Source: Nibricoccus sp.
GTDB taxonomy: Bacteria; Verrucomicrobiota; Verrucomicrobiia; Opitutales; Opitutaceae
Assembly (NCBI GenBank): GCA_047602425.1
Contig: JASGHG010000001.1
Span: 3,136,001 to 3,200,000, forward strand
Direction of reading: 5' to 3'
DNA length: 64,000 nucleotides
Made by a program: the position numbers and the translations under genes
The notes under the pieces: generated by a model
Database searches by the model: none
The model's input: the letters and a program-made list of their open reading frames with translations, nothing else
What the model was told of the DNA's origin: nothing
Shown here: positions 5,772 through 24,753 of the stretch, one piece after another
Layout of the letters: each line of letters opens with the position of its first letter
Position numbering within the stretch: position 1 is the stretch's first letter

Positions 5772-5966
5772 TAACTTGATACCCGGCTCGTCCCGATAGC
5801 TTTGAAGTGGATAGCTTCTTCCAGCCACGAACTCTTTGTTCCCGATGGAAGGCAGCCGGGTGCCTGCAATTTAACCAAATGCATATCACTATTATTCGGC
5901 TGTTCTGGCCGTTGCCTTAGCGATATATCTGTAGATGTGACGCCTTAAGTTATTTGAAACTAAAGG

Positions 5967-7274: not shown

Positions 7275-7306
7275 GGACCTATTATTAGGCTTTTCCCCAT
7301 TTTCCG

Positions 7307-7325
7307 GTGTCACAGCCGTGTCACA
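7307..7325. promoter_or_regulatory. Pho-box-like direct repeat, candidate OmpR/PhoB-family operator
   Basis: GTGTCACA-gcc-GTGTCACA with an 11-bp period, in the divergent intergenic region next to an OmpR-family regulator. Confidence 0.55.
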
Positions 7326-7429
7326 TCGGACGCTTTTTACGTTTTTTAGCTCTTGGAGGTGCGAACTCGACCTGCATGCTGCCTTACACACGCGTGTTTT
7401 AATTTTTACATGATTCGAGAATTTTCTCC

Positions 7430-8131
7430 ATGAAACTCTTACCGCGCATAATCGTCGTTGATGACGAACCGGCAATGAGAGCGAGCGTTTGTGAATGCTT
7501 GCTCGCCGAGGGTTTTCGTGTCCTTGAGGCGACGGATGGTGCGCAAGGGCTTGAAATGATCGCGAAAGAGTCGCCCGCGCTGGTCATTCTCGATGTGATG
7601 ATGCCGAACCTTACGGGATTGGAAGTAGCGGCGGAGTTGCGTCGACTCGGACAAAATACGCCGGTTCTGATGCTGACCACCCGCAGCGAAGTGGCGCAAA
7701 AAGTAGCTGGGCTCGAGGCGGGGGCGGACGACTATCTGGCGAAGCCCTTCGATCGCCGGGAACTGATTGCGCGGGTCAATGCCTTGTTGCGCCGCCAGAA
7801 TATCTCCCAAGAAAAAAAGCGGATCAGCCGCCTGCGTTTTGGCGCAGTAGAAGTGGATCTCGAAAAACGTACGGCCAAGAAAGGACAAACTATTCTGGCG
7901 CTCACTAACACTGAGTATGCCCTACTTGAACTGCTGGCCAAACACATGGGATCTCCAGTTTCACGCGACCTGATTCTTGATGCGGTTTGGGGCTACACCT
8001 ATTTCCCATCGACCCGTACGGTGGACACTCACATCTGGCGTTTAAGAAAAAAAATTGGCGACAATGGCGAAGAGCCACGCTGGCTGAAAAAAGTGCAGGG
8101 CGAAGGCTATTCGTTGAACTGCGACGAGTAA
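7430..8131 (+). CDS. OmpR/PhoB-family DNA-binding response regulator
   Basis: VVDDE, ILDVMMP, GADDYLAKPF, and a winged helix LTNTEYALL...VWG...TRTVDTHIWRLRKKI. Confidence 0.95.
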   Translation: MKLLPRIIVVDDEPAMRASVCECLLAEGFRVLEATDGAQGLEMIAKESPALVILDVMMPNLTGLEVAAELRRLGQNTPVLMLTTRSEVAQKVAGLEAGADDYLAKPFDRRELIARVNALLRRQNISQEKKRISRLRFGAVEVDLEKRTAKKGQTILALTNTEYALLELLAKHMGSPVSRDLILDAVWGYTYFPSTRTVDTHIWRLRKKIGDNGEEPRWLKKVQGEGYSLNCDE

Positions 8132-8450
8132 TTGTCGCTCACCGAAGCTTGGAGCTAGAACAAGGGCGGAGTGGGTCTAACGCATGCGAAAGCGAGCGGT
8201 CTTGCGCTTCATTGTGTCGGATGAGAGATCAAATTTCACGTGCCGGTCGACTACGGGAATGAAGCGTCCACGCAGACGATCACGCCTTTAACGAATATCG
8301 AGTCGGTGCGCTCTTGTACCTGTTTGGAACGTTACGACTGTTGCTAGTTATGGCCCTCCAATCAAGGGCGTGCGCGTGCGATAGGACCGAATTTAGCTAC
8401 TCCCACATGAAAACCGCTTCGCGCTAGGGTACGTCTTCAAAATCGGGAAC

Positions 8451-8633
8451 TAAGCCTGCCCCGATTTGACGGACATCGGGAGAACCCAAAGAAAGAACTC
8501 CTGCATGACAGACGAAAAGGAGAAGAGCGGGGCAATGCCCCGGCAGTACGACCAAGCGTTCAAACAAGAAGCCGTGTGCTTCTGGCGAAGCAGTGGGCAA
8601 GCCGCCGAGCACACCGCCAGACAGCTTGGAATA
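8451..8633 (+). mobile_element. IS3-family remnant: left end plus truncated OrfA
   Basis: TAAGCCTGCCCCGATTTGACGGACA resembles an IS3-family left inverted repeat. The peptide RQYDQAFKQEAV...AEHTARQLGI is an HTH_Tnp_1-like start that stops abruptly. No OrfB or right end is present. Confidence 0.7.
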
Positions 8634-8872
8634 TTTCTCCGCTACTGAGAATGCCAATTGAACCATTTGCAGTCGTGTAATGGAAGAGGGTATCCTTCCG
8701 TGATTCTTCGGAGTACTGTGGTAGTGAATGACCGGGAATCTTCTTCATATACAGCCTCGTACCCGCAGGTCTTCTTGGGCGGGGTAAGTTTTTTTGCGCC
8801 AGGCCATGCGACAAAATTTTCGCTTAATAACCGAACGACGTCCAGCTGTTTAGGCGGCTTTGCCTTGGGCAT
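8631..8872 (-). pseudogene. Truncated, possibly frameshifted DUF2971-like gene fragment
   Basis: An ATG at 8872 sits just after the SNF2 stop. The motif TLFHYTTANGSIGILSSGEI (frame of ORF 8560..8814) resembles the LxHYT..G..GIL start of DUF2971 proteins and is cut at the IS junction. Confidence 0.4.
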
Positions 8873-8876
8873 TCGA

Positions 8877-11519
8877 TCAACTCGTCAGCAGCGACCTCAA
8901 ATCGGCGAGGGAGAGTTTGGCGGAGGCGGCGTCGCTGGCTTCGAAGACGTCGGCTAGGAGGGCGCGTTTGCTTTCCTGGAGTTGCAGGACTTTTTCTTCG
9001 ACGGTGCCGCTGCAAATGAGTTTGTAGCTCGTGACGACGCGGCTTTGGCCGATGCGGTGGGCGCGGTCGGTCGCTTGTGCTTCGACGGCGGGATTCCACC
9101 ACGGATCGAAATGAATCACGGTGTCGGCGCTCGTGAGGTTGAGGCCGGTGCCGCCTGCTTTGAGCGAGATGAGGAAGACGGGGATGTCGTTGGCGGTGTT
9201 GAATTGATCGACCGCGGCCTGGCGGGCGCGGGTGGACATCGAACCGTCGAGGTAGCAGAAGGGAATTTGTTGCGCTTCGAGTTCGGTGCGGAGCAGGGCG
9301 AGGAGCGAAGTGAATTGCGAGAAGACAAGCAGGCGGTGTCCGTCGTCGATCGCTTCGGCGAGCAATTCGCGGAAGGCATCGAGTTTGGCGGATTCGGAGG
9401 AAGGTGACGGGTTATGGGTGATGGGTGATGGGGAGGTGTCGGATTGGGGGTAGGGCGCGACCGCCGGGCGCGCCGGGCTTGCATCCAGCGCGGGCGGAGG
9501 TAACGGACGGCCCGGCGGTCCGTCCCTACCCGGCAGCAAGCGTGGATCGCAGCAGACTTGGCGGAGGCGGAGGAGTTGGGTGAGCGTGGCGAAACGGATG
9601 GCGTTTTCGGAGGCGCCGCTGGCTTCGAGGTCCATCAACGCGCGCTCGGACTCTTCCTGCACCTGGCGGTAGAGAGCGGATTGGGTGGGGGAGAGTTCGC
9701 AATAGAGCACCTGCTCGATCTTCGGCGGGAGCTCGGGGGCGACGGCTTGTTTGGTGCGGCGAAGGATGTAGGTGGCGGTCTTGGCGCGAAGACGTTCGTC
9801 GTACCAAAGGCGATCTTCGCCGCGCGTGCCGGGCGGAACTTTTTCGAGATAGCCGGGCATGAGCACCTCGAAGAGCGAGCGCAGATCGTCGAGACTGTTT
9901 TCGAGCGGCGTGCCGGTGAGGAGGAAGCGGCCGCGGGCGCGGAGGGAGCGGAGCGTCTGGGCGTTTTGGGTGCGGCGGTTTTTGAGATGTTGTGCTTCGT
10001 CGGCGATGAGGACGGCGAATTCGGTTTCGCCAAAGAGTGCGCGGTCGCGGGCGAGCGTGCCGTAGGAAGTGACGATCAGATCGATACCGGCAAAATCGGC
10101 GGCCTTCATGAGACGGCGGTCACCGTGGTGGATGAAGACGCGGAGTTGCGGGGTGAAGCGCGCGGCCTCGCGGCGCCAGTTTTCGACGAGGGTGGCGGGA
10201 CAGATGACGAGGGATGGGTGGTGGGTTATGAGTGATGGGTGATGGGGCGAAGGGCGAGAGGAGGTTATGGGTGATGGGTTATGGGTGATGGGTAGTTGGC
10301 TCTTTGGCGTTTGAGATTTGGAATTTGGGATTTCCTCGCGGAGCGCAGCGAGCACCGCGAGTGCCTGCAGGGTTTTACCGAGGCCCATTTCGTCGGCGAG
10401 AATGCCGCCGAGGTTATGCCGATACAGGTGCCAGAGCCAGGCGGCGCCGAGTTTCTGGTAGGGACGGAGCTGGGTGTCGAACCCGGCGGGGATGGGGGCG
10501 GGCGCGAGTTTGGAAAGGTTGCGCAGGGCTTCGCTACGTTCGCGCCAGGCGGAGGGCGGCTGGAAGTGCGGGGCGATTTCCTCGATGATGGCTTCGGCCT
10601 CGGCAAGGCGCGCGGTGCTGACGCGATGCGTGCGATTCGTGGTGACGCCCGCGCCGGTGTCTCCGGCGAGGGCACGCTGGGCATTGGCTAGTCCTGCGAG
10701 TTGTTTCGGCGAAACAAGGAAGACGCGGCCCTCAGCTTCGACATAACCGCGATTCGAAGCGGCGGCGGAGAGGAGCTGGTCTTCGGGGACCTTGCCGGCG
10801 CGGAGGGCGACCGTGACGTTGAAGCCGTTACCGTTGTCGACCGCATCGCAGACCACCTCGGCAGTGGTGAGGCGCGCGGTGTTTTTCTCGAAGTTGGGCG
10901 TGAACTCGGCATGAAATTCGTTGCGGAGCCGGTCGCCGTGGGTGGCGAGGAAATTGAGCGTTTTGTGCCGGTCGCGCAGCCACCACTTGCGATTGGAGGG
11001 TTCGAGAACGAAACCATTGGACTTCACTAATTCCAAAGCGGCGGAATAGGAAACGCTCTCGCGCGAAGGCAGCGTCACGGCGAGAAAATGTTCGGAACCA
11101 TCGACGGTGAAAGAAGTGGAGATATCACGCGAAGCGAGTGGCTTGGCGCGCGTCGTCGGTGATGGGGTAACTCCTGGGGGAACGTAGGAAGGGACGATGG
11201 TTTTTGGCGCATCGGGTTCGTTGAGGAATTCACTCACGCCGCGCAGAAGCGGGCCGACCCAGAGGACAGGGACTTGCGGAGCGTTGACCCAAAAGAAAAC
11301 AGGTTGGCCCGTAAGCAACGAGACAAGTTGACGAAGTTGGGCGCGTTTGAGTTGGAGGAAGGCGGGTGGTTTTGGCGTGCCGCACCAACTTTGAAGAAGG
11401 GCGAGGGCGGGCAGAATTTCCTGTGAGGGCGGTGCGTCGAGGTTCAGCTCAACCTTCAGCGCGATGGCATCGCGAGGCGCGGCGGCGGCGAGATTGGGCG
11501 GAAGCAGTAAACGCAACAT
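8877..11519 (-). CDS. SNF2-family (DEAD/DEAH-like) helicase
   Basis: LRPYQ, GILADEMGLGKT, LVICPATLVENW, IADEAQHLKN, LTGTPLEN, LLRLRQVC, VFSQF, LKAGGTGLNL, DPWWNPAVEAQATDRAHRIGQ. Confidence 0.95.
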   Translation of the reverse strand: MLRLLLPPNLAAAAPRDAIALKVELNLDAPPSQEILPALALLQSWCGTPKPPAFLQLKRAQLRQLVSLLTGQPVFFWVNAPQVPVLWVGPLLRGVSEFLNEPDAPKTIVPSYVPPGVTPSPTTRAKPLASRDISTSFTVDGSEHFLAVTLPSRESVSYSAALELVKSNGFVLEPSNRKWWLRDRHKTLNFLATHGDRLRNEFHAEFTPNFEKNTARLTTAEVVCDAVDNGNGFNVTVALRAGKVPEDQLLSAAASNRGYVEAEGRVFLVSPKQLAGLANAQRALAGDTGAGVTTNRTHRVSTARLAEAEAIIEEIAPHFQPPSAWRERSEALRNLSKLAPAPIPAGFDTQLRPYQKLGAAWLWHLYRHNLGGILADEMGLGKTLQALAVLAALREEIPNSKSQTPKSQLPITHNPSPITSSRPSPHHPSLITHHPSLVICPATLVENWRREAARFTPQLRVFIHHGDRRLMKAADFAGIDLIVTSYGTLARDRALFGETEFAVLIADEAQHLKNRRTQNAQTLRSLRARGRFLLTGTPLENSLDDLRSLFEVLMPGYLEKVPPGTRGEDRLWYDERLRAKTATYILRRTKQAVAPELPPKIEQVLYCELSPTQSALYRQVQEESERALMDLEASGASENAIRFATLTQLLRLRQVCCDPRLLPGRDGPPGRPLPPPALDASPARPAVAPYPQSDTSPSPITHNPSPSSESAKLDAFRELLAEAIDDGHRLLVFSQFTSLLALLRTELEAQQIPFCYLDGSMSTRARQAAVDQFNTANDIPVFLISLKAGGTGLNLTSADTVIHFDPWWNPAVEAQATDRAHRIGQSRVVTSYKLICSGTVEEKVLQLQESKRALLADVFEASDAASAKLSLADLRSLLTS
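9405..9432. repeat. Heptamer tandem repeat (TGATGGG/TTATGGG x4), in frame in the SNF2 gene
   Basis: TGACGGG TTATGGG TGATGGG TGATGGG, encoding PSPITHNPSP. Confidence 0.8.
9449..9530. repeat. GTAG-type REP doublet (REPIN-like), in frame in the SNF2 gene
   Basis: GGTAGGGCGCGACCGCCGGGCGCGCC ... GGACGGCCCGGCGGTCCGTCCCTACC, 82 bp with inverted GGTAGGG/CCCTACC ends. Translated as GRDGPPGRP...ARPAVAPY. Confidence 0.75.
10212..10333. repeat. Composite heptamer arrays (TGATGGG/TTATGGG and TTTGRRA types), in frame in the SNF2 gene
   Basis: About nine TGATGGG-type units plus TTTGGCG TTTGAGA TTTGGAA TTTGGGA. Encodes IPNSKSQTPKS...PITHNPSPIT...HHPSLITHHPS between helicase motifs I and Ia. Confidence 0.8.
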
Positions 11520-11677
11520 GGTTGTGAAAAGACTGCCCGGACGGTTCGGGGCGAGGCGAGAAAAACTATTTTTCGAACCATCGGGAATATTCCGTGCGCC
11601 GGTTGCTCTGACTCCCGTTGGCGTTTATTTGCGTCCGTGCGGATGCAGCGACCGACATGACTCAAAAGTGTATCACC

Positions 11678-12022
11678 ATGAAACATTCGACTAAGACCCT
11701 GCTCGCCTGTGCCGCGCTTGCCGGCATTTACTCCGGTTCCCTCGCAACGAAAACCTACGCCGCGTCGCACCGTGATGCCGGCACCAAGGTCCTCCTGGCC
11801 GCCGACGGTGACAAAGACAAAGCCTCTTGTTCCGGCAAGGACGGCTGTGGCGGCAAGGACAAGTCCAGCTGCAAGGGCATGCACGACTGCAAAGGCAAAA
11901 ACGATTGCAAGGGACAAGGCGGTTGCAAATCCAGCGACAACGGCTGCAAGGGCAAAAACTCCTGCAAGGGCAAAGGCGGTTGCTCGACGGCCAAGAAGCA
12001 CACCGAAGAAAAGAAAGCCTGA
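11678..12022 (+). CDS. Secreted Cys/Lys/Gly-rich MNIO RiPP precursor (bufferin BufA2-like)
   Basis: Sec-type signal peptide (MKHSTKTLLACAALAG...), then a core with 9 Cys, mostly spaced C-x5-C (CKGMHDCKGKNDCKGQGGC...CKGKNSCKGKGGC), directly upstream of DUF692. Confidence 0.85.
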   Translation: MKHSTKTLLACAALAGIYSGSLATKTYAASHRDAGTKVLLAADGDKDKASCSGKDGCGGKDKSSCKGMHDCKGKNDCKGQGGCKSSDNGCKGKNSCKGKGGCSTAKKHTEEKKA

Positions 12023-12044
12023 GTATCCAAAAAATCACTTCAAC

Positions 12045-12070
12045 GGCGCCGTCGCGAGTTGGGCGGCGCC
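12045..12070 (+). other. Intergenic stem-loop between precursor and DUF692 genes
   Basis: GGCGCCGTC-gcgagttg-GGCGGCGCC stem with no U-tract. Confidence 0.55.
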
Positions 12071-12087
12071 ATCAACCATTTCATCCC

Positions 12088-12951
12088 ATGCCCGCCAATC
12101 GATTCAATGGACACACCGAGTACGGCATTGGACTCGGTCTGCGAGTGCCGCACTACCGGCATATCTTATCGAACAAACCGACTTGCGCGTGGTTTGAGAT
12201 CATTTCGGAAAATTTCATGGTCGATGGCGGGCGGCCGCTGGAGGTGCTCGACAAGATCCTCGAACAATACCAAGTCGTGCAACACGGTGTGTCGATGTAT
12301 TTTGGTTCGGCCGACAAGCCGGATCGGGCGCACTTGCAGAAGTTGAAACGCCTGGTCAAGCGCACCAAGACACCCTGGCTCTCCGATCATCTTTGCTGGG
12401 GCAGTGTCGACGGCACTTATACCCACGATCTGCTGCCAATGCCCTACACGCGCGAAGCGGCCAAACGCACGGCGGAGAAAATCAAACACGTGCGTGATTT
12501 CCTCGAAGTGCCGATTTGCGTGGAGAACGTGAGCTCCTACATGGAATTTCATGCCTCGGAGATGACTGAGTGGGAGTTCCTCACCGAAGTCGTCGAACTC
12601 GCCGACTGCGGAATTCTTCTCGACGTGAATAATATTTACGTCTCCTCAAAAAACCACGGCTTTGATCCAATGAAATACATCGAAGGTATCCCGCATCACC
12701 GGGTCGGCCAGATGCACATCGCGGGTCACACGAAGTTCGAGAAATATATTTTAGACACGCATGACCATCCAGTGCTCGACCCGGTTTGGAAAATGTACCG
12801 GCGGGCGACGGAACTGTGCGGCGTGACGGCGACATTGCTCGAGTGGGACGACAAGATTCCGTCCTTTGACGAAGTCCACGCCGAGGCACTGAAGGCGAAT
12901 CAATATATCGACGAAGCCCGTGAAGCGCTCGTTCAGCATGCCAAAAACTAG
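12088..12951 (+). CDS. DUF692 multinuclear non-heme iron oxidative enzyme (MNIO; MbnB/TglH/BufB family)
   Basis: GIGLGLR, FEIISENF, QHGVS, WLSDHL, DLLPMP, VENVSSY, LLDVNNIYV, MHIAGH, DTHDHPV, LLEWD. Start at ATG 12088. Confidence 0.95.
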   Translation: MPANRFNGHTEYGIGLGLRVPHYRHILSNKPTCAWFEIISENFMVDGGRPLEVLDKILEQYQVVQHGVSMYFGSADKPDRAHLQKLKRLVKRTKTPWLSDHLCWGSVDGTYTHDLLPMPYTREAAKRTAEKIKHVRDFLEVPICVENVSSYMEFHASEMTEWEFLTEVVELADCGILLDVNNIYVSSKNHGFDPMKYIEGIPHHRVGQMHIAGHTKFEKYILDTHDHPVLDPVWKMYRRATELCGVTATLLEWDDKIPSFDEVHAEALKANQYIDEAREALVQHAKN

Positions 12952-13867
12952 ACGCCGCCCTGCCGAAGTTATGCCCGATCTTGAGCCGCGCGATCTGGCC
13001 GCCTGGCAGCGCACGATGCATGCGGCGATCACGCGTCCCCTCGCACCGGGCGATCGGGCGCAACGACGCTGGTTCGATGGCGGCTCGACGGCGCGGGCCA
13101 TGGCGAAACTTGTCAAACCGAGTCGAACCCTCCAACCCGTCGAACGAGTCGAAATCTACAATCGCATGTATTGGTTTCGCATCCTCGACAGCCTTGCGCA
13201 GGATTTCCCTGGGTTGAAGGCGTTATTGGGCGACAAGAAATTCTGGAAGCTGGCGGAGACATATCTGGCGGTGTGCCCCTCGCGTTCGTTCACGTTGCGC
13301 GACCTCGGATCGAGGCTGGAAAAATTTATCGCGAGCGAAGCCGCTTTGGTGGAACCCTATTTGGCGGCCGCGCTCGATATGACACATTTCGAGTGGGCGC
13401 AAATCGTGGCCTTCGACGGACCGTCGAAGCCGAAGTTGCGCAAGGCGCAGTTCGAAGGAACGAACCCGAACCAATTGCAACTCGGCCTGCAGCCCTATTT
13501 GACTATCCTCAACTGTCGGCATCCGGTCGACGAGTTTGTCCTCGCGGTGAAACGCGACGGGGCTTTGCGCACGGAGGCCAGCAACGCGGTGTTGGCGCGG
13601 ATCGAGTCGACGGGCGAGGTGGTGGAATTGCGTCGCGGACCCATTTTATACCTCGCGGTGCATCGCATGGACAACCAACTCTATTATAAACGGCTCGATA
13701 GAGAGGCAGCGGTTTTATTGCGCGCGCTGCGGGCCGGACGAACGTTGGCGGAGGCCTGCGCCGCAGCTTTTGCGCGTTCGAAGCTGGGTGAGGCGGAGCA
13801 GGCGGAAACGCTGAAGCAGTGGTTTTCCCTCTGGATGCGACTCGGTTGGCTCTGCGCGCGGGAATAA
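12938..13867 (+). CDS. DUF2063 (BufC/HvfC-like) MNIO partner protein
   Basis: RVEIYNRMYWFRILDSLAQDFPGLKALLG..F..LA..YL...PSRSFTLRDLG, DMTHFEWA. Overlaps the DUF692 stop. Confidence 0.88.
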   Translation: MPKTRRRPAEVMPDLEPRDLAAWQRTMHAAITRPLAPGDRAQRRWFDGGSTARAMAKLVKPSRTLQPVERVEIYNRMYWFRILDSLAQDFPGLKALLGDKKFWKLAETYLAVCPSRSFTLRDLGSRLEKFIASEAALVEPYLAAALDMTHFEWAQIVAFDGPSKPKLRKAQFEGTNPNQLQLGLQPYLTILNCRHPVDEFVLAVKRDGALRTEASNAVLARIESTGEVVELRRGPILYLAVHRMDNQLYYKRLDREAAVLLRALRAGRTLAEACAAAFARSKLGEAEQAETLKQWFSLWMRLGWLCARE

Positions 13868-13892
13868 AACGGCGGTTCGATGGCTCTAAATT

Positions 13893-14366
13893 ATGACTAT
13901 GCAAATCACATCATTAAGGACTCGATTTGAGGCGATGGCCGATTTTCTTCGCTCGCCGCTGTTGCTGGTGTTGAGGGTTTATTGGGGATGGCAATTTGTT
14001 CAAGCGGGCTGGGGAAAGATCATGAATCTGGAGAAAACCGCCGGATTCTTTCGCGACCTCGGAATTCCCGCACCCCAACTCAATGCGATCCTCGCGGGCG
14101 GCACCGAATGCATCGGGGGACTGCTGTTGCTGCTGGGACTTTGGGCAAGAATGGTGAGTGTGCCTTTGATCGTCACAATGGCCGTGGCTTACGCGACTGC
14201 GGAGCGCGAGGCCCTGCGCTCGATCGCGAGCGATCCGGACAAATTCACCTCGGCGGCGCCGTTTTTGTTTCTGCTCGTGTCCCTCATCGTACTGGCCTTC
14301 GGGCCGGGAACTTTCTCGGTGGATCGGTTGCTGAAACGCGAAACCAACATTAATAACAAGGCCTAA
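13893..14366 (+). CDS. DoxX-family membrane protein
   Basis: LRVYWGWQFVQAGWGKI, F..LGIP.P, E..GGLLLLLGL..R, GPGTFSVD. Confidence 0.92.
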   Translation: MTMQITSLRTRFEAMADFLRSPLLLVLRVYWGWQFVQAGWGKIMNLEKTAGFFRDLGIPAPQLNAILAGGTECIGGLLLLLGLWARMVSVPLIVTMAVAYATAEREALRSIASDPDKFTSAAPFLFLLVSLIVLAFGPGTFSVDRLLKRETNINNKA

Positions 14367-14372
14367 GCGCCC

Positions 14373-14927
14373 ATGTCGGACGACGCCTTCACACAACTCG
14401 TGGATATGTACTATCCATCGCTTTATCGCTTCGCGCTGAGTCTGGCGCGCAGCGAGGCGGACGCGTGTGATCTGGCGCAACAGACCTTCTATGTTTGGGC
14501 AAAAAAAGGCCACGCGTTGCGCGAGGCGGCGAAGGCAAAGTCCTGGTTGTTCACCACGCTATATCGTGAATTTCTGCGAGGGCGGCGCCGCGGCGAACGT
14601 ATGACGGCATTGGATACGGTGCCGGAGAGCCAGTTGGAAGAAGTAACGCTGGAACCGGAAATCGTGGCATCGATGGATGGCGGCGTGGTGATGACCGCGT
14701 TGCAGGAGGTGGAGGAAATTTTTCGCGCACCGCTGACCCTTTTTTATTTGGAGGAACTTTCCTATCAGGAAATCGCCGAGACGTTGGAGGTTCCGGTTGG
14801 TACGGTGATGTCGCGGCTTTCGCGTGGGAAAACGCAACTGCGTGCACGTCTGGCCTCGCGTATTGGGACAAAATCCGGAACAGTCGTGCCGTTCCAGAAT
14901 TCAAACAACAAGGCCTCCCATGGATAA
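14373..14927 (+). CDS. ECF RNA polymerase sigma factor
   Basis: Region 2 LYRFALSL...DACDLAQQTF...KSWLFT; region 4 LSYQEIAETLEVPVGTVMSRLSRG. Confidence 0.95.
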   Translation: MSDDAFTQLVDMYYPSLYRFALSLARSEADACDLAQQTFYVWAKKGHALREAAKAKSWLFTTLYREFLRGRRRGERMTALDTVPESQLEEVTLEPEIVASMDGGVVMTALQEVEEIFRAPLTLFYLEELSYQEIAETLEVPVGTVMSRLSRGKTQLRARLASRIGTKSGTVVPFQNSNNKASHG

Positions 14928-15648
14928 CAACGAGGCAAAATTCATTCTCAAAGCCTACCGACCCGGCGGTGCCGATGCTGGCGACGCGCAGTTTAGCGCG
15001 GCGCTGACCCAGGCGGAGCGCGATCCGGAATTGCGGGTCTGGTTCGAACGCGAACAAGCATGCGACAAAGCCATGGCCGTGAAATTGAAAGCGATTCCGG
15101 TGCCTGCGGGTCTGCGCGAATCCATCCTCGCGGGTGGCAAAGTGACGGCGGCGCGGCGTGCCTGGTGGCGGCAGCCTTTCTGGCTGGCGATGGCGGCCTC
15201 GGTGGCGTTGTTAATCGCCGTGGTTTCAATTTGGCGCTATCAGACGGTTTCGACTGATTGGAGTCAGGTGGTGGCGCAATTGAGTGCCGATGCCGCGCAT
15301 GCGGAGAAACATGGCTCTGCAGGCGAGACCGCGAAGCAATTTACAGCGCTGGTGGCGAATGCGAGCACGCATTTGAGTTCGCCGTTGCCGGTCAACTTGG
15401 GACGACTCAAAGCCGACGGCTGCCGCACGCTGACGGTGGCTGGCCACGAAGTGATGGAAATCTGCTTCGAGCGAAACGGCGGTGAATTTCACCTCTACGT
15501 GATGAAGCGGCCGCCATCGCGGGATGTGCCGTCCGGACCGCAATTTGCCGCTCGTGGCGCGATGCACTCGGTGCTTTGGACCGACGCCAATCATCTTTAT
15601 GTGATGGCGAGCGCCAAAGACGAAGCGGCGCTGAAGGCGCTGTTATAA
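14920..15648 (+). CDS. Membrane-anchored anti-sigma factor (DUF3379-like)
   Basis: Overlaps the sigma stop codon. Cytoplasmic N-terminus (L.AYRPGG.D...P.GLRESIL), one TM helix (WLAMAASVALLIAVVSIW), and a periplasmic domain with GCRTL...EICF...FHLYV. Confidence 0.75.
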   Translation: MDNNEAKFILKAYRPGGADAGDAQFSAALTQAERDPELRVWFEREQACDKAMAVKLKAIPVPAGLRESILAGGKVTAARRAWWRQPFWLAMAASVALLIAVVSIWRYQTVSTDWSQVVAQLSADAAHAEKHGSAGETAKQFTALVANASTHLSSPLPVNLGRLKADGCRTLTVAGHEVMEICFERNGGEFHLYVMKRPPSRDVPSGPQFAARGAMHSVLWTDANHLYVMASAKDEAALKALL

Positions 15649-17739: not shown

Positions 17740-17832
17740 GTGGACCGACCAGCGTGTTCACGGCCGGGTAAAGCGCAAGTATTGGTAAAGGGCCACGGAG
17801 ATAGGCGCGACGATTCGATTTCCGCCCGCAAC

Positions 17833-17864
17833 AAAAAATCCGCCCCGGGTAAATCCGAGGCGGG
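17833..17864 (-). terminator. Intrinsic terminator after the GH48 gene
   Basis: On the minus strand: CCGCCTCGG-ATTTAC-CCGGGGCGG then ATTTTTT. Confidence 0.75.
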
Positions 17865-17910
17865 CGAGAAGAGCGGAACAAGTTAAAGAGCCGCTGAGGA
17901 GCGAGCTATT

Positions 17911-18680
17911 TTACTGAGATCCATTGGCCTCGAAGTGAGACCAGGGGAAAGAACCGACGTAATGGATGTAGTACTTGCCGTTGATCTTAGCGGGCATGCT
18001 ATTGGACCAACGGTTGGTGTAATTGACACCGTTGATCTCGAGCAGCTGGAGATTCCAGCTGTTGACATAGTTGATGGTGCCCGACGTTTCCCAACAGAAC
18101 TCTCCAGCGCCATCCTTGGCAAAACTGAGCGTGATCGCGACCGGATTGGCGCAGGGCGTGGTTGCAACCGGAGTGACAGTGATGGCCGAAGACGCGGTGA
18201 AGCCGCCGCTTTGCGTAGTGGCGGTGATGGTGGCCGAACCAGCCGCTACACCCGTAACGACGCCCGAACTGTTGACAGTGGCGACGCTGGTGTTGCTGGA
18301 AGACCAGGTGACCGTCTTGTTCGTGGCATTGCTTGGCGAAACCGTGGCGGTCAGCGTGGTGGTGGCACCGACGTTCACCGAAGCGGAAGTCGGGGCAACG
18401 GTCACGCCGGTGACGGGCACGACGACATTGGTGACGGTGATGGCCGAGGAAGCGGTGAAGCCGCCGTCCTGCGTCGTGACGGTGACCATGGTGGAACCGG
18501 CCATGGAACCGGTGACCACGCCGGAATTGCTGACGGATGCAACCGCGGGATTATTCGAAGTCCAAGTGACCGCCTTGTTGGTGGCGTTGCTCGGTGAAAC
18601 CGTTGCGACCAACGTCGTCGTGCTGCCCAGATTCACTGTCGCCGAGGTCGGCGCGACGGTTACGCCGGTGACCGGCACAT
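17911..18680 (-). repeat. Duplicated Ig-Ig-CBM64 tail, copy 1 (copy 2 at about 20877..21650)
   Basis: About 255 C-terminal residues are nearly identical between the GH48 and GH9 proteins; DNA differences are mostly at third codon positions. Confidence 0.9.
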
Positions 18681-20670
18681 TCGTGACAGGAGTGCCGAAG
18701 AAGCGTCCATATTCCGCGTTGGCAATGGCGATGGAAGCCTGCGCCCAGAAACGATGGTACGCTTTTTTGTAATCCGTGCCGCTGTTGTAGGCGGTGACGA
18801 GCGCGGCCCAGTCCGGATCGCTGCGATACTTGGAACGGATGTCGATGAACTTTACGCCAGGTACAATCACATCGCCGTTCGCCATTTTGCCGGACCAGCC
18901 GGTGGGAATATAAACGGTCTGGTCGAAGAAGCGGCGGAAGTCCGCGCGACTCTCCGTCACGGCGACGCCTTTGCCGTTGGGCTCATAATATTTTGTCCAC
19001 ATGCGATCGAGGATCTGTTGAGCGAGATCGCGGGAAGCCGTGTCGAGCGTGCCCCAGCGCTGGGTCGCGGCGGCATAGTAGGTGAAAGTCTGGGCGAGCG
19101 CCGCGGCGATACCCAGGTCGGTGCCATAGCTAGCAACATTGACGTGCAGGCCGGTGTTGGCGGTGGGACTGGCGGGAACCCACGTGTTGGGCGCGCCGCT
19201 CCAGCCGATTTCACTGGGAATCTGAAAACCACCGTCGGACGTGAGCTGAACCACGGATTTGGCCCAAGCGATCCATTTGTCGAGAACGGCCTTGGCGCGG
19301 GCATTGTTCGAGACGTAGTAGTATTCGGCGACGCGTTCCATCGACCAGGCTTGCATGCCGAACCAAGTGTTACTACCCGGGTCGTGATAGACGGGATTTT
19401 CCTGGTAGGCCATGCCATAGAAAGTCGGCGTGCCGGAGGGATACGGATCGTAGTTGCCATTCAAGCTGTTGGTGGCGCCGCCCGCGATCGCGCCTTCTGC
19501 GGACTGCAGCCATTGATAAAACTCGAGCTGGCGGGTCAGGCTTTGACCCCAGTCGCGAGCGCCGTTGGTGGAAGCCGGACGCAGATCCGTCGTGGCACTG
19601 AGCGCGTACGCGGCGAGCGGATTTTGGTAACCGAAATGGTTGTGGCTGCAACCAATTCGCCAGGCCCAACCCTGTGAAGTGAGCGGACCGCCCCAGGCGT
19701 AATACCAGGACAGAAGGTAGTGGGCGCTATTGTAGCCGGTGCCACCGGGGCCGGTCTTGCTCTGCGAACCGATCGGCTTGAAATATTTGTCGAACATGGC
19801 GAGGCGGATGAAGTCGCCCATCTTCGCGGCTTTGGCCACCGGCAGCGTCGTCGCGGGATTCAGGCCCTGATTGCGGGCGAATTGCACACCCCAATAAATC
19901 GCCTGCACCGCGCGGGCGTCGGCGTCCGGCGCGTTGGTGTAACGCCACTGGGCTGCGGGAGCGGAAGTTTCGCTGATAAAGAGCCGGAGAAAGCCCGTGC
20001 CATCGTTGGAACCCCATTTGAAATTTTCCCAACTGGGATGAGGAACCGTTTCCCAGACGGACTCCTGCTCGCCGCGTTGAAACGTATTGATGTAGGAAGG
20101 CGTGCTGACGCCATCGCCCTTTTTGCCATAACCGTAGAAGTTATCGCAATCGAAGAGCCAGTGCATGCCATAGATATTCGATCCATAGGCGGCGGTGAGA
20201 TCGGGCGAGACCGGATCGACGCCGACAGGCACCGTGCTTTCCAATGGCGATGGGTAGTTGTTCGGTAGCGGGAATTCCCGCGCGAACGTCGCTGGGGCAT
20301 TCGGATTGTAGCTGCCGGTGGTTGGCTGGAGATCGGAGGTGGGAATCGCATACGCCTCCATCTTGGTCCAGGCATTGTTGAGCGGGGTCCAGTTGCCGGT
20401 GATTCTTCCGTTCATAACCTCAAGCCAGAGCCAATACGAATAGGCCTCGCTGGTGGTTTCATGGCCGTGGTCGGGCGCTTCGCAAATCAACGTCTCCACG
20501 CTATGATAGGGGACGCCATCCTTGCTGAAATAACCATTGGCGGGGTTTACGATTTTTGCGCGCAAATCGAGAAAGCGCTGTTCATAGGTGTTTTGTTGCG
20601 AGAAGGCTGTGGAGCCGACGATGCAGGCGAGGCCCAGCGTGGCCGCCAGGGTGCGCAGATATTTTTTCAT
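17911..20670 (-). CDS. Secreted GH48 cellobiohydrolase with two Ig-like (Big_2) domains and a C-terminal CBM64-like module
   Basis: Signal peptide; [68 protein letters not shown] (GH48); two [19 protein letters not shown] repeats; tail DGAGEFCW...[21 protein letters not shown]...YYIHY...WSHFE. Confidence 0.95.
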
Positions 20671-20803
20671 AACAGCTATCAGTTGATGGTTAGTGATAAG
20701 GTGTGGTTGCACCGCGTATATGAGGCGGCCCGCAGCACCCGTTGTCGCCAGAGGGAAGGCCGAACGAGTCGGCACGGAAAATTTTCAAAACGGGAACCCC
20801 AAT

Positions 20804-20831
20804 GCCCGCCCCGGGAAAATCCGAGGCGGGC
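20804..20831 (-). other. Stem-loop between GH9 and GH48, paralogous to the 17833 terminator but lacking a U-tract
   Basis: Minus strand GCCCGCCTCGG-ATTTTC-CCGGGGCGGGC followed by ATTGGGG. Confidence 0.65.
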
Positions 20832-20876
20832 GGGAACGGGAAACGTTTTTATAACTCGCGCAGGAGCGAGGCGTTT

Positions 20877-21650
20877 TTACTGAGAGCCATTGGCCTCGAA
20901 GTGAGACCAGGGGAAAGAACCGACATAGTGGATGTAGTACTTGCCGTTGATCTTCGCGGGCATGCTATTGGACCAACGATTGGTGTAATTGACGCCGTTG
21001 ATCTCGAGCAGCTGGAGATTCCAGCTGTTGACGTAGTTGATGGTGCCCGACGTTTCCCAACAGAACTCTCCAGCGCCATCCTTGGCAAAACTGAGCGTGA
21101 TCGCGACCGGATTGGAGCAAGGCGTGGTTGCAACCGGAGTCACGGTGATGGCCGAAGAGGCGGTGAAGCCGCCGCTTTGCGTGGTGGCGGTGATGGTAGC
21201 CGAACCAGCCGCTACACTTGTAACGACGCCCGAACTGTTGACAGTGGCGACACTGGTGTTGCTGGAAGACCAGGTGACGGTCTTGTTGGTGGCATTGCTC
21301 GGCGAAACGGTCGCGGTCAACGTGGTGGTGGCGCCAACGTTTACCGAAGCGGAAGTCGGGGAAACGGTCACACCGGTGACGGGCACGACAACATTGGTGA
21401 CGGTGATCGCTGAGGAAGCGGTGAAGCCGCCATCCTGCGTCGTGACGGTGACCATGGTGGAGCCGGCCATGGAACCGGTGACCACGCCGGAATTGCTGAC
21501 GGACGCGACGGCAGGATTATTCGAAGTCCAAGTGACGGCCTTGTTCGTGGCAGTGCTCGGTGAAACGGTTGCGACCAACGTCGTCGTGTTGCCCAGATTC
21601 ACGGTCGCCGACGTCGGCGCGACGCTGACTCCTGTCACAGGAACGTTGAC
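20877..21650 (-). repeat. Duplicated Ig-Ig-CBM64 tail, copy 2
   Basis: Near-identical to 17911..18680. Confidence 0.9.
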
Positions 21651-23573
21651 GACGGGCGAGGGTGTCTGGCCCCAGACCAACGTACCGTTCACATAAAGCG
21701 GAATATTATTCGTATTCTTTAAAGTGCCATCAAGACCCTGATACGACCAGTCGTTGGTTGGGCTCCACGCAGCGGCCGGAGCTTCGTAGGGCAACCTGAC
21801 GCGGATTTGGGCCTCCTTGGTGGATTCGCCCTGGCCGCCCGGCCAGATGTCGACGCTCGATTGGAAAATTACCTCTGTGTAATAGATGTTGTTGGCTGCA
21901 TCCCACGGTTGCAATTGGGTGAACGTCACGTAGGCATTGTTGGCTGAAACGACATAGCTGCTCGCCGTATAGCCTGCGGCGAGGCCTTCGCTAATGTTCA
22001 CGAATATACGGAATTTATATTGGCTTGCCGTCCGGGCCGGCCACGCCGTGTGGTTGTTCACCCAGACAGAATATTCGGTGTAGGTGGTTCCCGAACCATT
22101 AAGCCGAGCCTGAACGGTGAATTCTTCGCTCGGCGTTTCCGCGACCGGGAAGTTCGCGAGAGGAGTCCCACCAAAATCCTGGACAAGTTTTGCCAAGGCT
22201 CCGGAAAACAGAGCGTTATAATCGCAGGCGACTTCGTTTTTAGTATAGTCGCCCCGTGAATCGGCGTAGGAATCGTCCGAGCCCGGTCCGCCGACAAGCG
22301 CGCCGTAGAGGATATGGCGGGTGTTGGATGGAGGGCCGTTCAAATTGTTGGCCCAAGCGCCATGCGCCGTCCGGTGGTGAGGGTTGACGGGTGGATTGGT
22401 GCCGAAGCCGCAGACATAGCTGCGGTTTTGCGGATTGCTGCCGAGAATATACTTAATCTGATTGACGGCGAAATTGTAGTATTTTGTCGCCTTGGCGGTG
22501 GTTGTTGCAACGGGTTGATAGTACAAAGCGACAAAGGCCGTATTCGCCGCGTAACGCAGCGAGCCCCATTGATCCAGCCACGCCAGCCCGCCCGGTGTGT
22601 AGGTGATGCGGGAGCCATTGTAGCCGTCGGTCCAATAGTCGAGGTTCCGCTCCGCATCGGTTTTGTACTGCGCCTTGCCAGTCAAGCGGGCGAGCAGGGC
22701 ATAGCAGCCGTAGGACTTGTCATCCCAGCCAAGTCCCCAGCGATAGGACTTAGTCGTGGATTGTGGTTCGGTTCCGAGATTGGCATAGTAGGACTCGGCC
22801 TTGGCGAGATAGGTGGCATCGCCAGTGGCGCGATAGAGCCAGATCGCGCCCCAGACCAACTCGTCGTTGTAACCGCTGTAGGAATTATAGTAACCGGCCG
22901 CGTCAGTAATGGCGCCGGTGTATACGCCGCGATAGGTATCGGCGAAACTATATAGTTGTTTTGCGTGGTTCAGGAGGGTGGCGCTATAGGTCGGATCGTC
23001 GGAAGCGAAGACCATGCTTGCGGCGGCCATGGCGGCGGCGGTCTCCGCAGCCAGGTCCGAGCCGGGATGGGCCGCATCGATTTTATAGGCGGGACGGGTC
23101 ATTCGCATCACCTCACAAGATCCCCACCAAGCATGATCCGTCCCGCCATTGCCGACCTGCCCCCATAGTTCGTTGGGCGCAGTGTGACAGCGTATAAAAT
23201 AATCGTTCACGAAACGCAGATTGTTTTTCAAATACTGCAATTGCCCTGAGGAAGTGTAGCCCGATGAGAAATCGATCGCGCCCCACGCCAGACAGGTGGC
23301 GGAAAATGCCATGGGGAAACCGAACTTCACATGGTCGCCCGCATCGTACCAGCCGCCCGTGAGGTTGAGGCCGACGTCGGAACCATCGGCGAGCGCGGAA
23401 TTCGCGCGCCAAGTGACACGATGGGTGGACGGCAAGGTGCCCGAACGCTGGGCCTCGTAAAAGAACATCGATTTCTGAAGCGCCTCGGCATAATTGTAAC
23501 TTTGCGCGGTGACTTGTACAAATGTGGCCACGAACAAGCAAAAGGCCACCAGCCTCTTAGTATATGTCTTCAT
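20877..23573 (-). CDS. Secreted GH9 endoglucanase with CBM3c, two Ig-like (Big_2) domains and a CBM64-like module
   Basis: Signal peptide; YNYAEALQKSMFFYEAQRSG, GGWYDAGDHVKFGFPMA, WGSLRYAAN, PHHRTAH, GALVGGP, NEVACDYNA (GH9); CBM3-like EEFTVQAR...NHTAWPAR...WPGGQ...EAQIR...W.PTNDWSY; same tail as the GH48. Confidence 0.95.
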   Translation of the reverse strand: MKTYTKRLVAFCLFVATFVQVTAQSYNYAEALQKSMFFYEAQRSGTLPSTHRVTWRANSALADGSDVGLNLTGGWYDAGDHVKFGFPMAFSATCLAWGAIDFSSGYTSSGQLQYLKNNLRFVNDYFIRCHTAPNELWGQVGNGGTDHAWWGSCEVMRMTRPAYKIDAAHPGSDLAAETAAAMAAASMVFASDDPTYSATLLNHAKQLYSFADTYRGVYTGAITDAAGYYNSYSGYNDELVWGAIWLYRATGDATYLAKAESYYANLGTEPQSTTKSYRWGLGWDDKSYGCYALLARLTGKAQYKTDAERNLDYWTDGYNGSRITYTPGGLAWLDQWGSLRYAANTAFVALYYQPVATTTAKATKYYNFAVNQIKYILGSNPQNRSYVCGFGTNPPVNPHHRTAHGAWANNLNGPPSNTRHILYGALVGGPGSDDSYADSRGDYTKNEVACDYNALFSGALAKLVQDFGGTPLANFPVAETPSEEFTVQARLNGSGTTYTEYSVWVNNHTAWPARTASQYKFRIFVNISEGLAAGYTASSYVVSANNAYVTFTQLQPWDAANNIYYTEVIFQSSVDIWPGGQGESTKEAQIRVRLPYEAPAAAWSPTNDWSYQGLDGTLKNTNNIPLYVNGTLVWGQTPSPVVNVPVTGVSVAPTSATVNLGNTTTLVATVSPSTATNKAVTWTSNNPAVASVSNSGVVTGSMAGSTMVTVTTQDGGFTASSAITVTNVVVPVTGVTVSPTSASVNVGATTTLTATVSPSNATNKTVTWSSSNTSVATVNSSGVVTSVAAGSATITATTQSGGFTASSAITVTPVATTPCSNPVAITLSFAKDGAGEFCWETSGTINYVNSWNLQLLEINGVNYTNRWSNSMPAKINGKYYIHYVGSFPWSHFEANGSQ

Positions 23574-23868
23574 GACTAACGGGGGTTGAGGGTTGTATAA
23601 TCCGCAGACGGTTTGTTGGGAAACCCACAACAGGAACGGCCAAAGCAAAATGGTCACTCCCCCGCCATGCTAGATCATGAACGTGTCCTCTTTGAGCAAT
23701 CCGTCAAAAGGCATTCCAGTCTGTCGTTAGAGCAAAGTGTTTTATTACCTGACAATAAAATTATATAACGCACCGCACACTCGTACGATGGCGCTGCGTT
23801 TCAGACAATATACAACCGGCGCTTTCCATCGCTGCGCGCTGCCGGCGCCGAGAAAGGCGCATCCCGAT

Positions 23869-24753
23869 TCAGGGTTTGTTCGCGGCGGTCGGGCCGAGGC
23901 GCTTCAACGCTTCACGCGCGCGATCGAACGCGGGATTAAGCCGAAGGGTTTCCTCGTAGTGTGAGCAGGCTTCGGCGTTGACGCCTTTTTTTTCCAGAAT
24001 TTGTGCCAGGCGCCAGTGAGCGGCCCAGAGCGGCGGTTCGCCGGACTTGGGGGTGTAGGCGACGTACTCTTTCAACGCGTTTTCTCCCTCGTCGAGATGC
24101 AGATCAGTCATGGCTGCGAGCCGTCCGTATTGGTAGAGCACGACTTGATTGCTGGGAAATTTCTTTCGCAAGTCGTCTAGAATCGCGAAGGCTTCATCCG
24201 GTTTCTTTTCCTTGAGCTTGATGTCCGTGCGAAGGCCCGCGCCCTGGACGGGATCGCGTTTTTCGATTTCGGCAATCTCTGCGACTGCCTTGTCCATGCC
24301 TCCACCGACTATCGAGGGAGCCGCGCGATAGAATTCGTATCGGGATTTTCGATACTCGACGTTGTCGGGCGCAAGCGCGACCGCGCGGTCGTAGGCGGCA
24401 AGACACTTCTTGGCGAGGCCCATCTGGGAAAAGATCGACGCTTTCTGCGCGGAAACGCCATAGGCATCGCCGAGCTGGTGGAAATAGCGTGGCTGGTTCG
24501 CATCGCCGGCGGTTGCTTTTTCAAGATAGCGCACGGCGGCCTCGTGGTCTTTCAAGTTCAGAGCCGTGAGGCCGAGCCAGTAGTTGAGTTCCGCATCATT
24601 GGGCTCGGCGACGGCGAGTTTTTCGAAAAGGGCCTTAGCCTCGGTCAACTGGCGTTTCTGAAAAAGCTGTTTGCCATTGTCCAGCGCGGCCGGGTCGTAG
24701 GCGAACACGGAGGTTGTCAGGACGAAGAAAAGCAGTGTCGGTCTGAGAGGCAT
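23869..24753 (-). CDS. Exported tetratricopeptide repeat protein
   Basis: Signal peptide MPLRPTLLFFVLTTSVFA, then TPR-like helices (P.DAELNYWLG, AP.IVGGG.DKA, AHWRLAQILEKKG). Confidence 0.85.
   Translation of the reverse strand: MPLRPTLLFFVLTTSVFAYDPAALDNGKQLFQKRQLTEAKALFEKLAVAEPNDAELNYWLGLTALNLKDHEAAVRYLEKATAGDANQPRYFHQLGDAYGVSAQKASIFSQMGLAKKCLAAYDRAVALAPDNVEYRKSRYEFYRAAPSIVGGGMDKAVAEIAEIEKRDPVQGAGLRTDIKLKEKKPDEAFAILDDLRKKFPSNQVVLYQYGRLAAMTDLHLDEGENALKEYVAYTPKSGEPPLWAAHWRLAQILEKKGVNAEACSHYEETLRLNPAFDRAREALKRLGPTAANKP

Follow-up and report, generated by a model that had tools for sequence, protein, structure and literature searches.

A split GH9 and GH48 cellulase gene pair of probable Bacteroidota descent in an Opitutaceae genome

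Free, non-cellulosomal pairs of a GH9-CBM3c enzyme and a GH48 enzyme are known from Bacillota, as in CelZ and CelY of Thermoclostridium stercorarium and Cel9 and Cel48 of Lachnoclostridium phytofermentans, and the principle of combining the two families is already well established. Endo/exo synergy of Cel9A and Cel48A of T. fusca is described in passages of PMC3377646, and excerpts of PMC5831590 and PMC4928363 give CelA of Caldicellulosiruptor bescii as a single protein, GH9-CBM3c-CBM3b-CBM3b-GH48. Here, we analysed a 64,000-nucleotide stretch of a Nibricoccus genome (hereafter the window) that carries such a pair on its minus strand. The Bacillota free pairs and the T. fusca pair likewise combine a processive GH9-CBM3c enzyme with a reducing-end GH48, spacers and a crystalline-cellulose CBM, and one Bacillota locus (L064) also has adjacent GH48 and GH9-CBM3 genes; however, their tails are X2-CBM3b or fn3-CBM2 rather than Big2-Big2-CBM64, and the present pair belongs to a Gram-negative verrucomicrobial host with an outer membrane to cross. 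CelA agrees with the window's pair in its two catalytic modules and their order, but the pair is split into two genes. The closest layouts, with the same module order and adjacent genes, occur in Labilibaculum (L017), Saccharicrinis (L015), Geofilum (L018) and Bacteroidales MAGs, from which the pair differs in the missing T9SS sorting domain, the lack of sprA in its host, its two Big_2 domains and its much higher GC3. Our literature search found no characterisation of Bacteroidota GH9 or GH48 enzymes with Big2-CBM64-T9SS tails.

The original prediction, made from the sequence, was of adjacent secreted GH9-CBM3c and GH48 enzymes, both with CBM64 and with intact catalytic motifs, in a host of the Verrucomicrobiota/Opitutales; Pfam scans, an alignment with T. 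fusca E4, a structural model and the placement of the genome in the Opitutaceae bear this out. The GH48 gene runs as a single open frame, with no internal stop, from the ATG at 20670 to the TAA at 17911, and its 919-aa product comprises a signal peptide (about residues 1-24), the GH48 domain (29-658), two Big_2 domains and CBM64 (844-914). The catalytic domain is full-length (PF02011 positions 1-619 of 619) and scores 978 bits, where the curated cut-off is 25, and the PDB matches of the protein are bacterial GH48s, at up to 910 bits. The motifs TTSEAY and APDAD contain E75 and D249, which we take to be the catalytic glutamate and the proposed base; both residues are invariant in 12 aligned proteins, and the protein is predicted to be a reducing-end cellobiohydrolase.

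The GH9 gene, likewise a single frame with no internal stop, extends on the same strand from the ATG at 23573 to the TAA at 20877 and encodes 898 aa, arranged as a signal peptide (about 1-23), GH9 (28-460, 520 bits in the Pfam scan), CBM3c (about 470-640), two Big_2 domains, which the first reading had missed, and CBM64 (823-893). Its motifs DAGD (D77/D80) and NEVA (E447) align to D55, D58 and E424 of E4 (numbers counted from the alignment), whose equivalents are presumably catalytic. The CBM3c gave no match in the Pfam scan at E 0.001 and is recognised from an unbroken 25-638 match to T. fusca E4/Cel9A (1js4, 774 bits) and from a precomputed PF00942 assignment on P0134, a relative 92% identical to the GH9 protein. 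An AlphaFold model (pLDDT 86) superposes with TM 0.88-0.92 on five GH9-CBM3c enzymes (BlCel9A, E4, Cel9G, CelQ and CelR), and E4 and other enzymes of this kind are the closest solved structures. Relative to E4, the equivalents of E559, Q561 and R563 are retained, F476 is changed to Tyr, and R557 and Y520 are replaced. Two features of GH9 theme B, the catalytic residues and a CBM3c directly behind the catalytic domain, were found, and the protein is predicted to be a processive endoglucanase like Cel9A of T. fusca.

The two genes are separated by a 206-bp spacer, and the stop codon and separate signal peptides indicate two genes rather than one fusion. Sequence comparison revealed that their Big2-Big2-CBM64 tails (20877..21653 in GH9 and 17911..18687 in GH48, both minus strand) are near-copies: 251 of 258 aa are identical, nucleotide identity is 93%, and of the differences across the 259 codons 46 are synonymous and 7 non-synonymous. 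Such homogenisation was absent in one of seven pairs. CBM64 scored 122 bits with PF18666 in both proteins and matched the Spirochaeta thermophila structures 5lu3 and 5e9p (E 1.5e-19). Three tryptophans are conserved; however, the longer S. thermophila loop with the first surface tryptophan is replaced by a shorter loop without it, and the five Bacteroidota CBM64s compared likewise lack this residue. By our own numbering, the missing residue would be W36 of a preprint that describes CBM64 as a type A module with affinity for cellulose I and the W36 mutation as causing the largest loss of binding (10.1101/2020.07.02.183293); because this loop is missing, CBM64 of the pair may bind more weakly than the S. 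thermophila module.

GH48 is rare around the host, as had been anticipated. It was found in 3 of 400 other Opitutaceae genomes (4 of 401 with the host), in 3 of 15 genomes of one genus (g79), and in none of four congeners, 350 genomes sampled from the order or 400 from the phylum; our literature search found no report of GH48 from Verrucomicrobiota. The three other GH48s of the family are all fusions, two of them CelA-like GH9-GH48 proteins (G126 and G357). This form, shared by two proteins beyond those of the two Opitutaceae genomes, has about 2000 aa arranged as GH9-CBM3-Big2x3-GH48-Big2x2-CBM2, and differs from CelA in its Big_2 spacers and CBM2 and in its position, within the clade that lacks the T9SS tail and far from the Caldicellulosiruptor rows of the tree. 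Aquimarina and Flammeovirga commonly have similar fusions too (16 of the 28 Bacteroidota loci among the best 80 of 601 stretches).

Outside the family, the nearest named relatives are Bacteroidota, with GH48 domains 65-76% identical among the best 80 of 601 stretches. Within that set, Bacteroidota account for 28 of the 78 nearest named loci, and the others include myxobacteria, Burkholderiales and Chloroflexota, so that the initial view of GH48 as mainly a Bacillota and Actinomycetota family is too restrictive where close relatives are concerned; in 21 of these 28 Bacteroidota loci a GH9 lies next to GH48 or is fused with it. L015 and L017 share the gene order and Big2-CBM64 tails of the pair, and a metagenome pattern scan gave three loci. 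The architecture, at first thought unusual, is in fact that of many Bacteroidota relatives, GH48-Big2-CBM64 and GH9-CBM3-Big2-CBM64, plus a T9SS tail: the window's GH48 protein ends a few residues past CBM64, where these relatives run on into the sorting domain. Because the relatives share layout and tail, and the host lacks sprA, the architecture of the pair can be read as a trimmed Bacteroidota one. In the GH48 trees, all proteins of the family fall in one clade without the T9SS tail (16 rows, SH-aLRT 99; 13 rows and 99 under a mixture model), nested among tailed Bacteroidota GH48s, and keeping the tailed rows together was rejected, if modestly, at p-AU 0.031 in a quick tree of 40 selected rows. 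The mixture-model tree does not fix which Bacteroidota subgroup is sister to this clade, and the GH9 tree did not recover the forms without the tail as one clade. A Bacillota donor was rejected, since both trees place the Bacillota rows outside the group of Bacteroidota, as was a Spirochaeta donor, there being no spirochaete among the 78 loci from the best 80 of 601 stretches. A Bacteroidota origin with tail loss is what we regard as likely. The pair would have been acquired once from a lineage in which GH9 and GH48 genes lie side by side and end in Big2-CBM64-T9SS; the tail, useless in a host without SprA, would then have been lost, and the genes would have diversified in a few Opitutaceae lineages into split pairs, often with homogenised tails, or CelA-like fusions.

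The absence of a dockerin, SLH domain or T9SS tail had also been noted, and it held. Neither protein matched dockerin or SLH families in Pfam or has a hydrophobic C-terminal anchor, and a home-made T9SS-tail HMM, which detects 19 of 19 held-out tailed proteins, matched none of 25 tail-less proteins and no open reading frame of the host genome. No sprA was found in the host (G000) or in G126, and it was found in both of two Bacteroidota controls. The signal peptides, called by eye, would take both proteins to the periplasm by Sec, and a type II secretion-like apparatus could then release them. The host genome contains a GspD/E/F-like cluster; its genes, the secretins among them, score below curated cut-offs, and the clusters may instead be pilus systems. 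On balance, we lean towards export of the pair by type II secretion. Taken as a whole, the account that best explains the locus, and one we consider fairly probable, is a free GH9 and GH48 pair derived from Bacteroidota, with its tail lost and a type II-like release.

In the congener G004, whose genome is syntenic with both flanks of the pair, about 50-70 bp separate the TPR gene from the ccsA-like gene, with no pair between them, so that a segment of about 6.1 kb (approximately 17780..23870) has no counterpart there; this empty site, the GH48 trees and the AU test support the horizontal acquisition originally proposed. The empty site could also be a deletion, if the family acquired the pair long ago and mostly lost it, a possibility that differs only in timing, is compatible with our best explanation and to which we give appreciable but minority weight. 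It would fit the fully host-like codon usage (GC3 is 0.72 and 0.69 in the pair, 0.66 on average in the genome and 0.16-0.52 in six Bacteroidota relatives), the identity of only 71-81% between members of the clade across at least two genera, and the lack of any transposase or integrase match (Pfam) among the flanking proteins scanned and of repeats within the three border stretches searched. However, the sparse distribution among congeners, the family and g79 means that an old acquisition would require very many losses, and other genes stand upstream of the ccsA-like gene in G002, G003 and G007, as at a variable site.

We consider it most likely that the two proteins form a free, non-cellulosomal endo/exo cellulase pair. 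CBM64 of each protein would bind cellulose, with the two Ig-like spacers keeping it off the catalytic part; GH9-CBM3c would cut within chains and move processively, while GH48 would free cellobiose from reducing ends in synergy with it, and the products could be used through cellobiose phosphorylase and GH3 enzymes, whose genes lie elsewhere in the genome. Activity and synergy of the pair on crystalline cellulose are, in our judgement, likely. The pair is not the minimal two-gene system it was first taken for, since other genes of the host code for a GH5_4-like endoglucanase, GH44, a second GH9 (Ig-GH9), two further CBM64 enzymes (GH5 mannanase-like and GH30 xylanase-like) and cellobiose phosphorylase (a match of 1026 bits), together with two GH74-like and five GH3 proteins. 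Nevertheless, an accessory role is conceivable, in which the pair loosens plant walls or breaks down amorphous cellulose, mixed-linkage glucan or xyloglucan for an organism that lives mainly on hemicellulose, or is poorly exported, and the host is no primary degrader of crystalline cellulose. The host genome is rich in hemicellulases, its other two CBM64 enzymes resemble a mannanase and a xylanase, one CBM64 surface tryptophan is missing, no AA10 LPMO, GH6 or GH12 was found in the genome (the latter two checked by BLAST), and a cellulose SIP study classes Verrucomicrobia as non-cellulolytic secondary consumers (PMC8545098). We nevertheless hold this role to be unlikely, because the pair is intact and under purifying selection, as the differences between the tails indicate, GH9 and GH48 are presumed to occur together on six other contigs and in some relatives are even fused, cellobiose phosphorylase is present, and another SIP study lists Opitutaceae among putatively cellulolytic taxa (PMC5386986).

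Still less probable, in our view, is a different route or direction of transfer, in which the clade resides mainly in another, unsampled lineage and reached the Opitutaceae repeatedly, or the form without a tail came first and the tail was gained in Bacteroidota. Just 4 of the 16 rows in the clade belong to genomes assigned to the Opitutaceae, the neighbours of one of the other clade loci, L092, are only 30-50% identical to host proteins, and a Victivallales GH48 sits right outside the Bacteroidota group. Yet all named clade members among the best 80 of 601 stretches are Opitutaceae or Verrucomicrobia, P0018, a clade member, has a GH9 partner that shares 81% identity along its full length with a GH9 of the family genome G360, a neighbour in L091 has a poly-Ser/Gly-rich tail common in the host and a 60% match to a host protein, and the clade is nested beneath several successive tailed branches. 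An assembly artefact, whether the chimeric contig that had been raised as a concern or Bacteroidota contamination, was rejected as extremely improbable: two near-identical 0.78-kb tails might mislead an assembler, but the genome is closed in a single contig of 5.16 Mb (99.97% complete, 0.42% contaminated), the G004 flanks are adjacent without the pair, GC content and codon usage are native, the independent metagenomic P0134 has equal length and layout, and three other Opitutaceae genomes have GH48s of the same clade. We are all but certain that these are real, intact genes of an Opitutaceae.

Opitutaceae are generally regarded as consumers of sugars set free by other organisms. It is possible, though we put it forward tentatively, that a small, undescribed guild within the family consists of true primary degraders of crystalline cellulose, which took over a T9SS-secreted GH9 and GH48 pair from Bacteroidota, dropped the tail and re-routed export to type II secretion. 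In this scenario, CBM64 would also have been put to use as a common tag on a mannanase and a xylanase of the host, and CelA-like as well as three-enzyme (GH5-GH48-GH124) fusions would have been assembled independently from the acquired system. If so, this would be a documented secretion-system swap across phyla, and the pair would be a marker by which degraders in soil and freshwater Verrucomicrobiota could be told from cross-feeders. The two SIP studies conflict on whether cellulose-labelled Opitutaceae are degraders or cross-feeders (PMC5386986 versus PMC8545098), and a closed genome with intact GH48 and GH9-CBM3c makes that question testable; at most a small minority of the family, as sampled, has this machinery. 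The locus also offers a clean test of how an acquired secreted enzyme changes its export route in a recipient that does not have the secretion system of the donor, and the split pair and natural fusions are material for comparing split with CelA-like cellulases.

Around the genes, terminator-like sites (6 observed against 6.3 in shuffles) and promoter matches (4 against 2.5 expected) were at chance level in our scans. A terminator-like hairpin with a T-run 3' of the GH48 stop (17833..17867, minus strand) is accepted on its position alone, since such sites are no more frequent than in shuffles. A G+C-rich hairpin with no U-tract 3' of the GH9 stop (20800..20830, minus strand; region fold z = -2.7) is a near-copy of the hairpin behind GH48. 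Comparison with other loci revealed an 18-nt intergenic motif upstream of GH48 (20737..20754, minus strand), which among the loci compared outside the host genome occurs in a single one, the metagenomic L091, at the same position.

The principle of a free GH9-CBM3c enzyme acting with a GH48 is known; what is new here is the phylum of the host. The two adjacent genes of the original prediction are real: a GH9 gene (23573-20877; 898 aa) and a GH48 gene (20670-17911; 919 aa) both lie intact on the window's minus strand, with 206 bp between them. By Pfam, both proteins consist of the catalytic domain, two Big_2 domains and a CBM64, and the stretch between the GH9 domain and the Ig domains is the CBM3c that had been claimed for the GH9 protein: residues 25-638 align without a break to T. 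fusca E4, and a model built from an alignment (pLDDT 86) was superposed on five GH9-CBM3c enzymes at TM 0.88-0.92. The catalytic motifs of both proteins were likewise found in place, with roles of the motif residues that we assume. Signal peptides were identified by eye, and because neither protein has a C-terminal hydrophobic anchor, the pair looks like a set of released enzymes.

The window sits in a single 5.16-Mb contig (completeness 99.97%, contamination 0.42%), and the DnaE is closest to a cluster in which Verrucomicrobiota is the commonest phylum; the assignment of the host to this phylum stands, the family being Opitutaceae. The pair is flanked by a TPR gene and by ccsA-like/hemA genes; in a congener whose genome is closed (G004), these flanks are only about 50-70 bp apart, and thus about 6.1 kb found in the host is missing there. 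The composition of the pair (GC 0.57-0.59, GC3 0.69-0.72) is native to the host, in which GC3 has a mean of 0.66 and an s.d. of 0.07 over 2229 crude ORFs. Given this flank comparison and the native GC and GC3, a chimeric contig is very unlikely. Since GC3 is 0.16-0.52 in six Bacteroidota relatives, the transfer from Bacteroidota was not recent. The pair may have been gained from another member of Opitutaceae or lost by the relatives. GH48 was found in none of 60 relatives, in 3 of 400 other genomes of the family (each from the genus g79, where they make up 3 of 15 genomes), in none of 350 order-wide genomes and in none of 400 phylum-wide genomes; these samples overlap, and some of their genomes are incomplete. 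For CBM64 the count was 2 of 400 other family genomes.

No assignment of GH48 to Verrucomicrobiota was found in the open-access full texts searched; the keyword-matched passages of PMC8545098, PMC13386854, PMC11653725, 10.1101/2020.09.18.304485, PMC5386986, PMC13235733, PMC4928363, 10.1101/2020.07.02.183293, PMC3377646, PMC5831590, 10.1101/2025.03.13.642948, PMC12093494, PMC12961874 and PMC10469889 contain none. In PMC13386854, an Opitutaceae MAG expresses GH9s and GH94, and the sources of the GH48s are MAGs of Polyangiaceae and Cellulomonas and two CMAGs; PMC4928363 lists two Opitutaceae genomes with GH5, GH8, GH10 and GH18. Bacteroidetes genomes are said to be without GH48 in PMC5831590, a statement that the Bacteroidota GH48 loci found here show not to be general, and GH48 is mentioned for Flavobacteriaceae in PMC12961874.

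We infer from the sequence comparisons that the pair derives from a Bacteroidota system through loss of its secretion tag. A GH48 tree was built from 99 of the 191 available domains (the closest proteins and named representatives). In it the window GH48, three Opitutaceae fusions and 12 metagenomic proteins, all without a type IX secretion (T9SS) tail, form a clade (SH-aLRT 99) next to Bacteroidales proteins and within Bacteroidota rows that bear the T9SS tail. A quick search under a mixture model, on 60 rows, recovered both the clade (99) and its nesting (95, 97) but no firm sister group, and forcing 23 Bacteroidota/T9SS rows together was rejected, modestly, in a 40-row set (p-AU 0.031); gammaproteobacterial rows, which also nest among Bacteroidota, are absent from the 60-row tree and the 40-row test. 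In the tree for GH9, built on 88 of 163 rows, the tail-less forms lie among T9SS-tailed rows and do not make up one resolved clade. Of 28 Bacteroidota loci among the matches listed, 21 have a GH9 that adjoins GH48 or is fused to it, and the loci of Saccharicrinis (L015) and Labilibaculum (L017) have the gene order of the pair as well as Big2-CBM64 tails. In eight tailed relatives the CBM64 is followed by the sorting domain, and the window proteins stop at that boundary; the ten best GH48 homologues (71-80% identity) share the layout of the window GH48 and lack the T9SS tail. The host genome contains no sprA (present in 2 of 2 controls) and no ORF matching the T9SS-tail HMM (controls 19 of 19). 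As separate observations, L015 also encodes a protein with two tandem GH48 domains (5703-10895) within five successive genes that encode Big2 domains, of which four also encode CBM64. In Aquimarina and Flammeovirga, fusions with the layout GH9-CBM3-GH48 (1900-2350 aa) are common, at no fewer than 16 loci among the matches listed (L026-L034, L045-L049, L052, L053), and the matching proteins bear T9SS tails; no paper on these fusions was found in the literature searched.

Relatives carry natural fusions of this probably Bacteroidota-derived GH9/GH48 system, and all three GH48 proteins of g79 are fusions. Two of them (L010:5118-11279 in genome G126 and L011:7895-13939 in G357) are CelA-like proteins of about 2000 aa with the layout GH9-CBM3-Big2x3-GH48-Big2x2-CBM2, which recurs at L090:552-6503; P0255 and P0256 are two more GH9-GH48 fusions of this kind. 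In L010, L011 and L090, GH48 is followed by a module of about 130 aa that has no annotation. The third, of 2347 aa (L009:7970-15013, G288), joins GH5, GH48 and GH124 and also carries CBM6/35, CBM2 and Big_2 domains. A fusion from Victivallales, which we take to be an order within Verrucomicrobiota under GTDB, has the reverse domain order GH48-GH9-CBM3 (L025:7326-13256) and branches apart from the Opitutaceae clade in the GH48 tree. A family member with no GH48 match (G360) encodes GH9-CBM3-BACON repeats-CBM64 with a GH74-like gene after it (L106:3375-7278) and, on another contig (L107), a GH74-like C-terminal part that ends in CBM64.

The Big2-Big2-CBM64 tails of the two window proteins are nearly identical, with 251 of 258 residues the same and 93% nucleotide identity (46 synonymous and 7 non-synonymous differences), and the similarity extends past the coding end into the downstream hairpin. 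Six GH48 clusters are inferred to have a GH9 partner, as a matching GH9 was found on a contig of identical length, and an adjacent pair was seen directly in the metagenomic locus L091. Within the six inferred pairs, tail identity is 98, 98, 94, 80, 76 and 76%, against 42-79% between pairs; a seventh has no within-pair excess (74 versus 74-75%). Repeated copying between the GH9 and GH48 genes is likely to have occurred in some lineages. The hairpin 3' of GH9 has no U-run and that 3' of GH48 has one, an arrangement that would fit a single transcript of both genes, stabilised by an internal stem after GH9. An 18-nt motif upstream of GH48 is shared between the window (20737-20754) and L091 (1109-1126), where the remaining spacer aligns poorly, and may serve in regulation or RNA processing.

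The pair would most likely work like T. fusca Cel9A and Cel48A, the former described in PMC3377646 as a processive endocellulase in synergy with the reducing-end exocellulase Cel48A. Each enzyme is predicted to be targeted to cellulose by its CBM64, a type A module according to 10.1101/2020.07.02.183293; the CBM64s of the pair lack the loop bearing the first surface tryptophan, which calls for caution over this targeting. The idea of a minimal two-gene system had to be abandoned, as the genome encodes further GH5, GH44, GH9, GH74-like, CBM64, GH3 and GH94 proteins: a GH5_4-like enzyme that also has BACON and CBM35-like domains, a second, unclassified GH5, a GH44, an Ig-GH9, two GH74-like proteins (presumably of that family), five GH3 and three GH94, among them a clear cellobiose phosphorylase. 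A mannanase-like GH5 (L099:4611-6047; host contig C1, 664.6-666.0 kb) and a xylanase-like GH30 (L100:17843-20000; C1, 2287.8-2290.3 kb), both with poly-Ser linkers, bear CBM64s 53-61% identical to those of the pair. The host genome has no AA10 and gave no BLAST match to GH6 or GH12 domains. The likeliest export route would be a GspD/E/F-like cluster, with the gspD-like gene at about 2846.5-2848.7 kb of C1, whose scores are below curated cut-offs. By eye, about 25-30 other secreted host proteins (for example, C1:1067724-1069445 and L104:4868-10556) have a C-terminus in which poly-Ser is followed by a run of Gly, a hydrophobic segment and Arg-Arg, an ending that to us resembles a GlyGly-CTERM anchor; two such proteins tested matched none of the NCBIfam sorting models.

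Elsewhere in the window, 11618-15648 holds a bufferin-type RiPP cluster, a known kind, with genes for a Cys/Lys-rich precursor, an MNIO BufB (over cut-off), HvfC-like and DoxX/HvfX-like proteins, an ECF sigma and an anti-sigma factor. Eight ORFs, each of about 800 aa, follow one another across 25375-46148, the two tested being ADOP-family duplicated permeases; a DUF4097 gene interrupts the series, and genes for ABC ATPase, outer-membrane efflux and HlyD proteins come after it. Two similar dense tRNA arrays lie about 36 kb apart on the host contig, at about 2390-2392 kb and 2425-2431 kb, among the matches listed.
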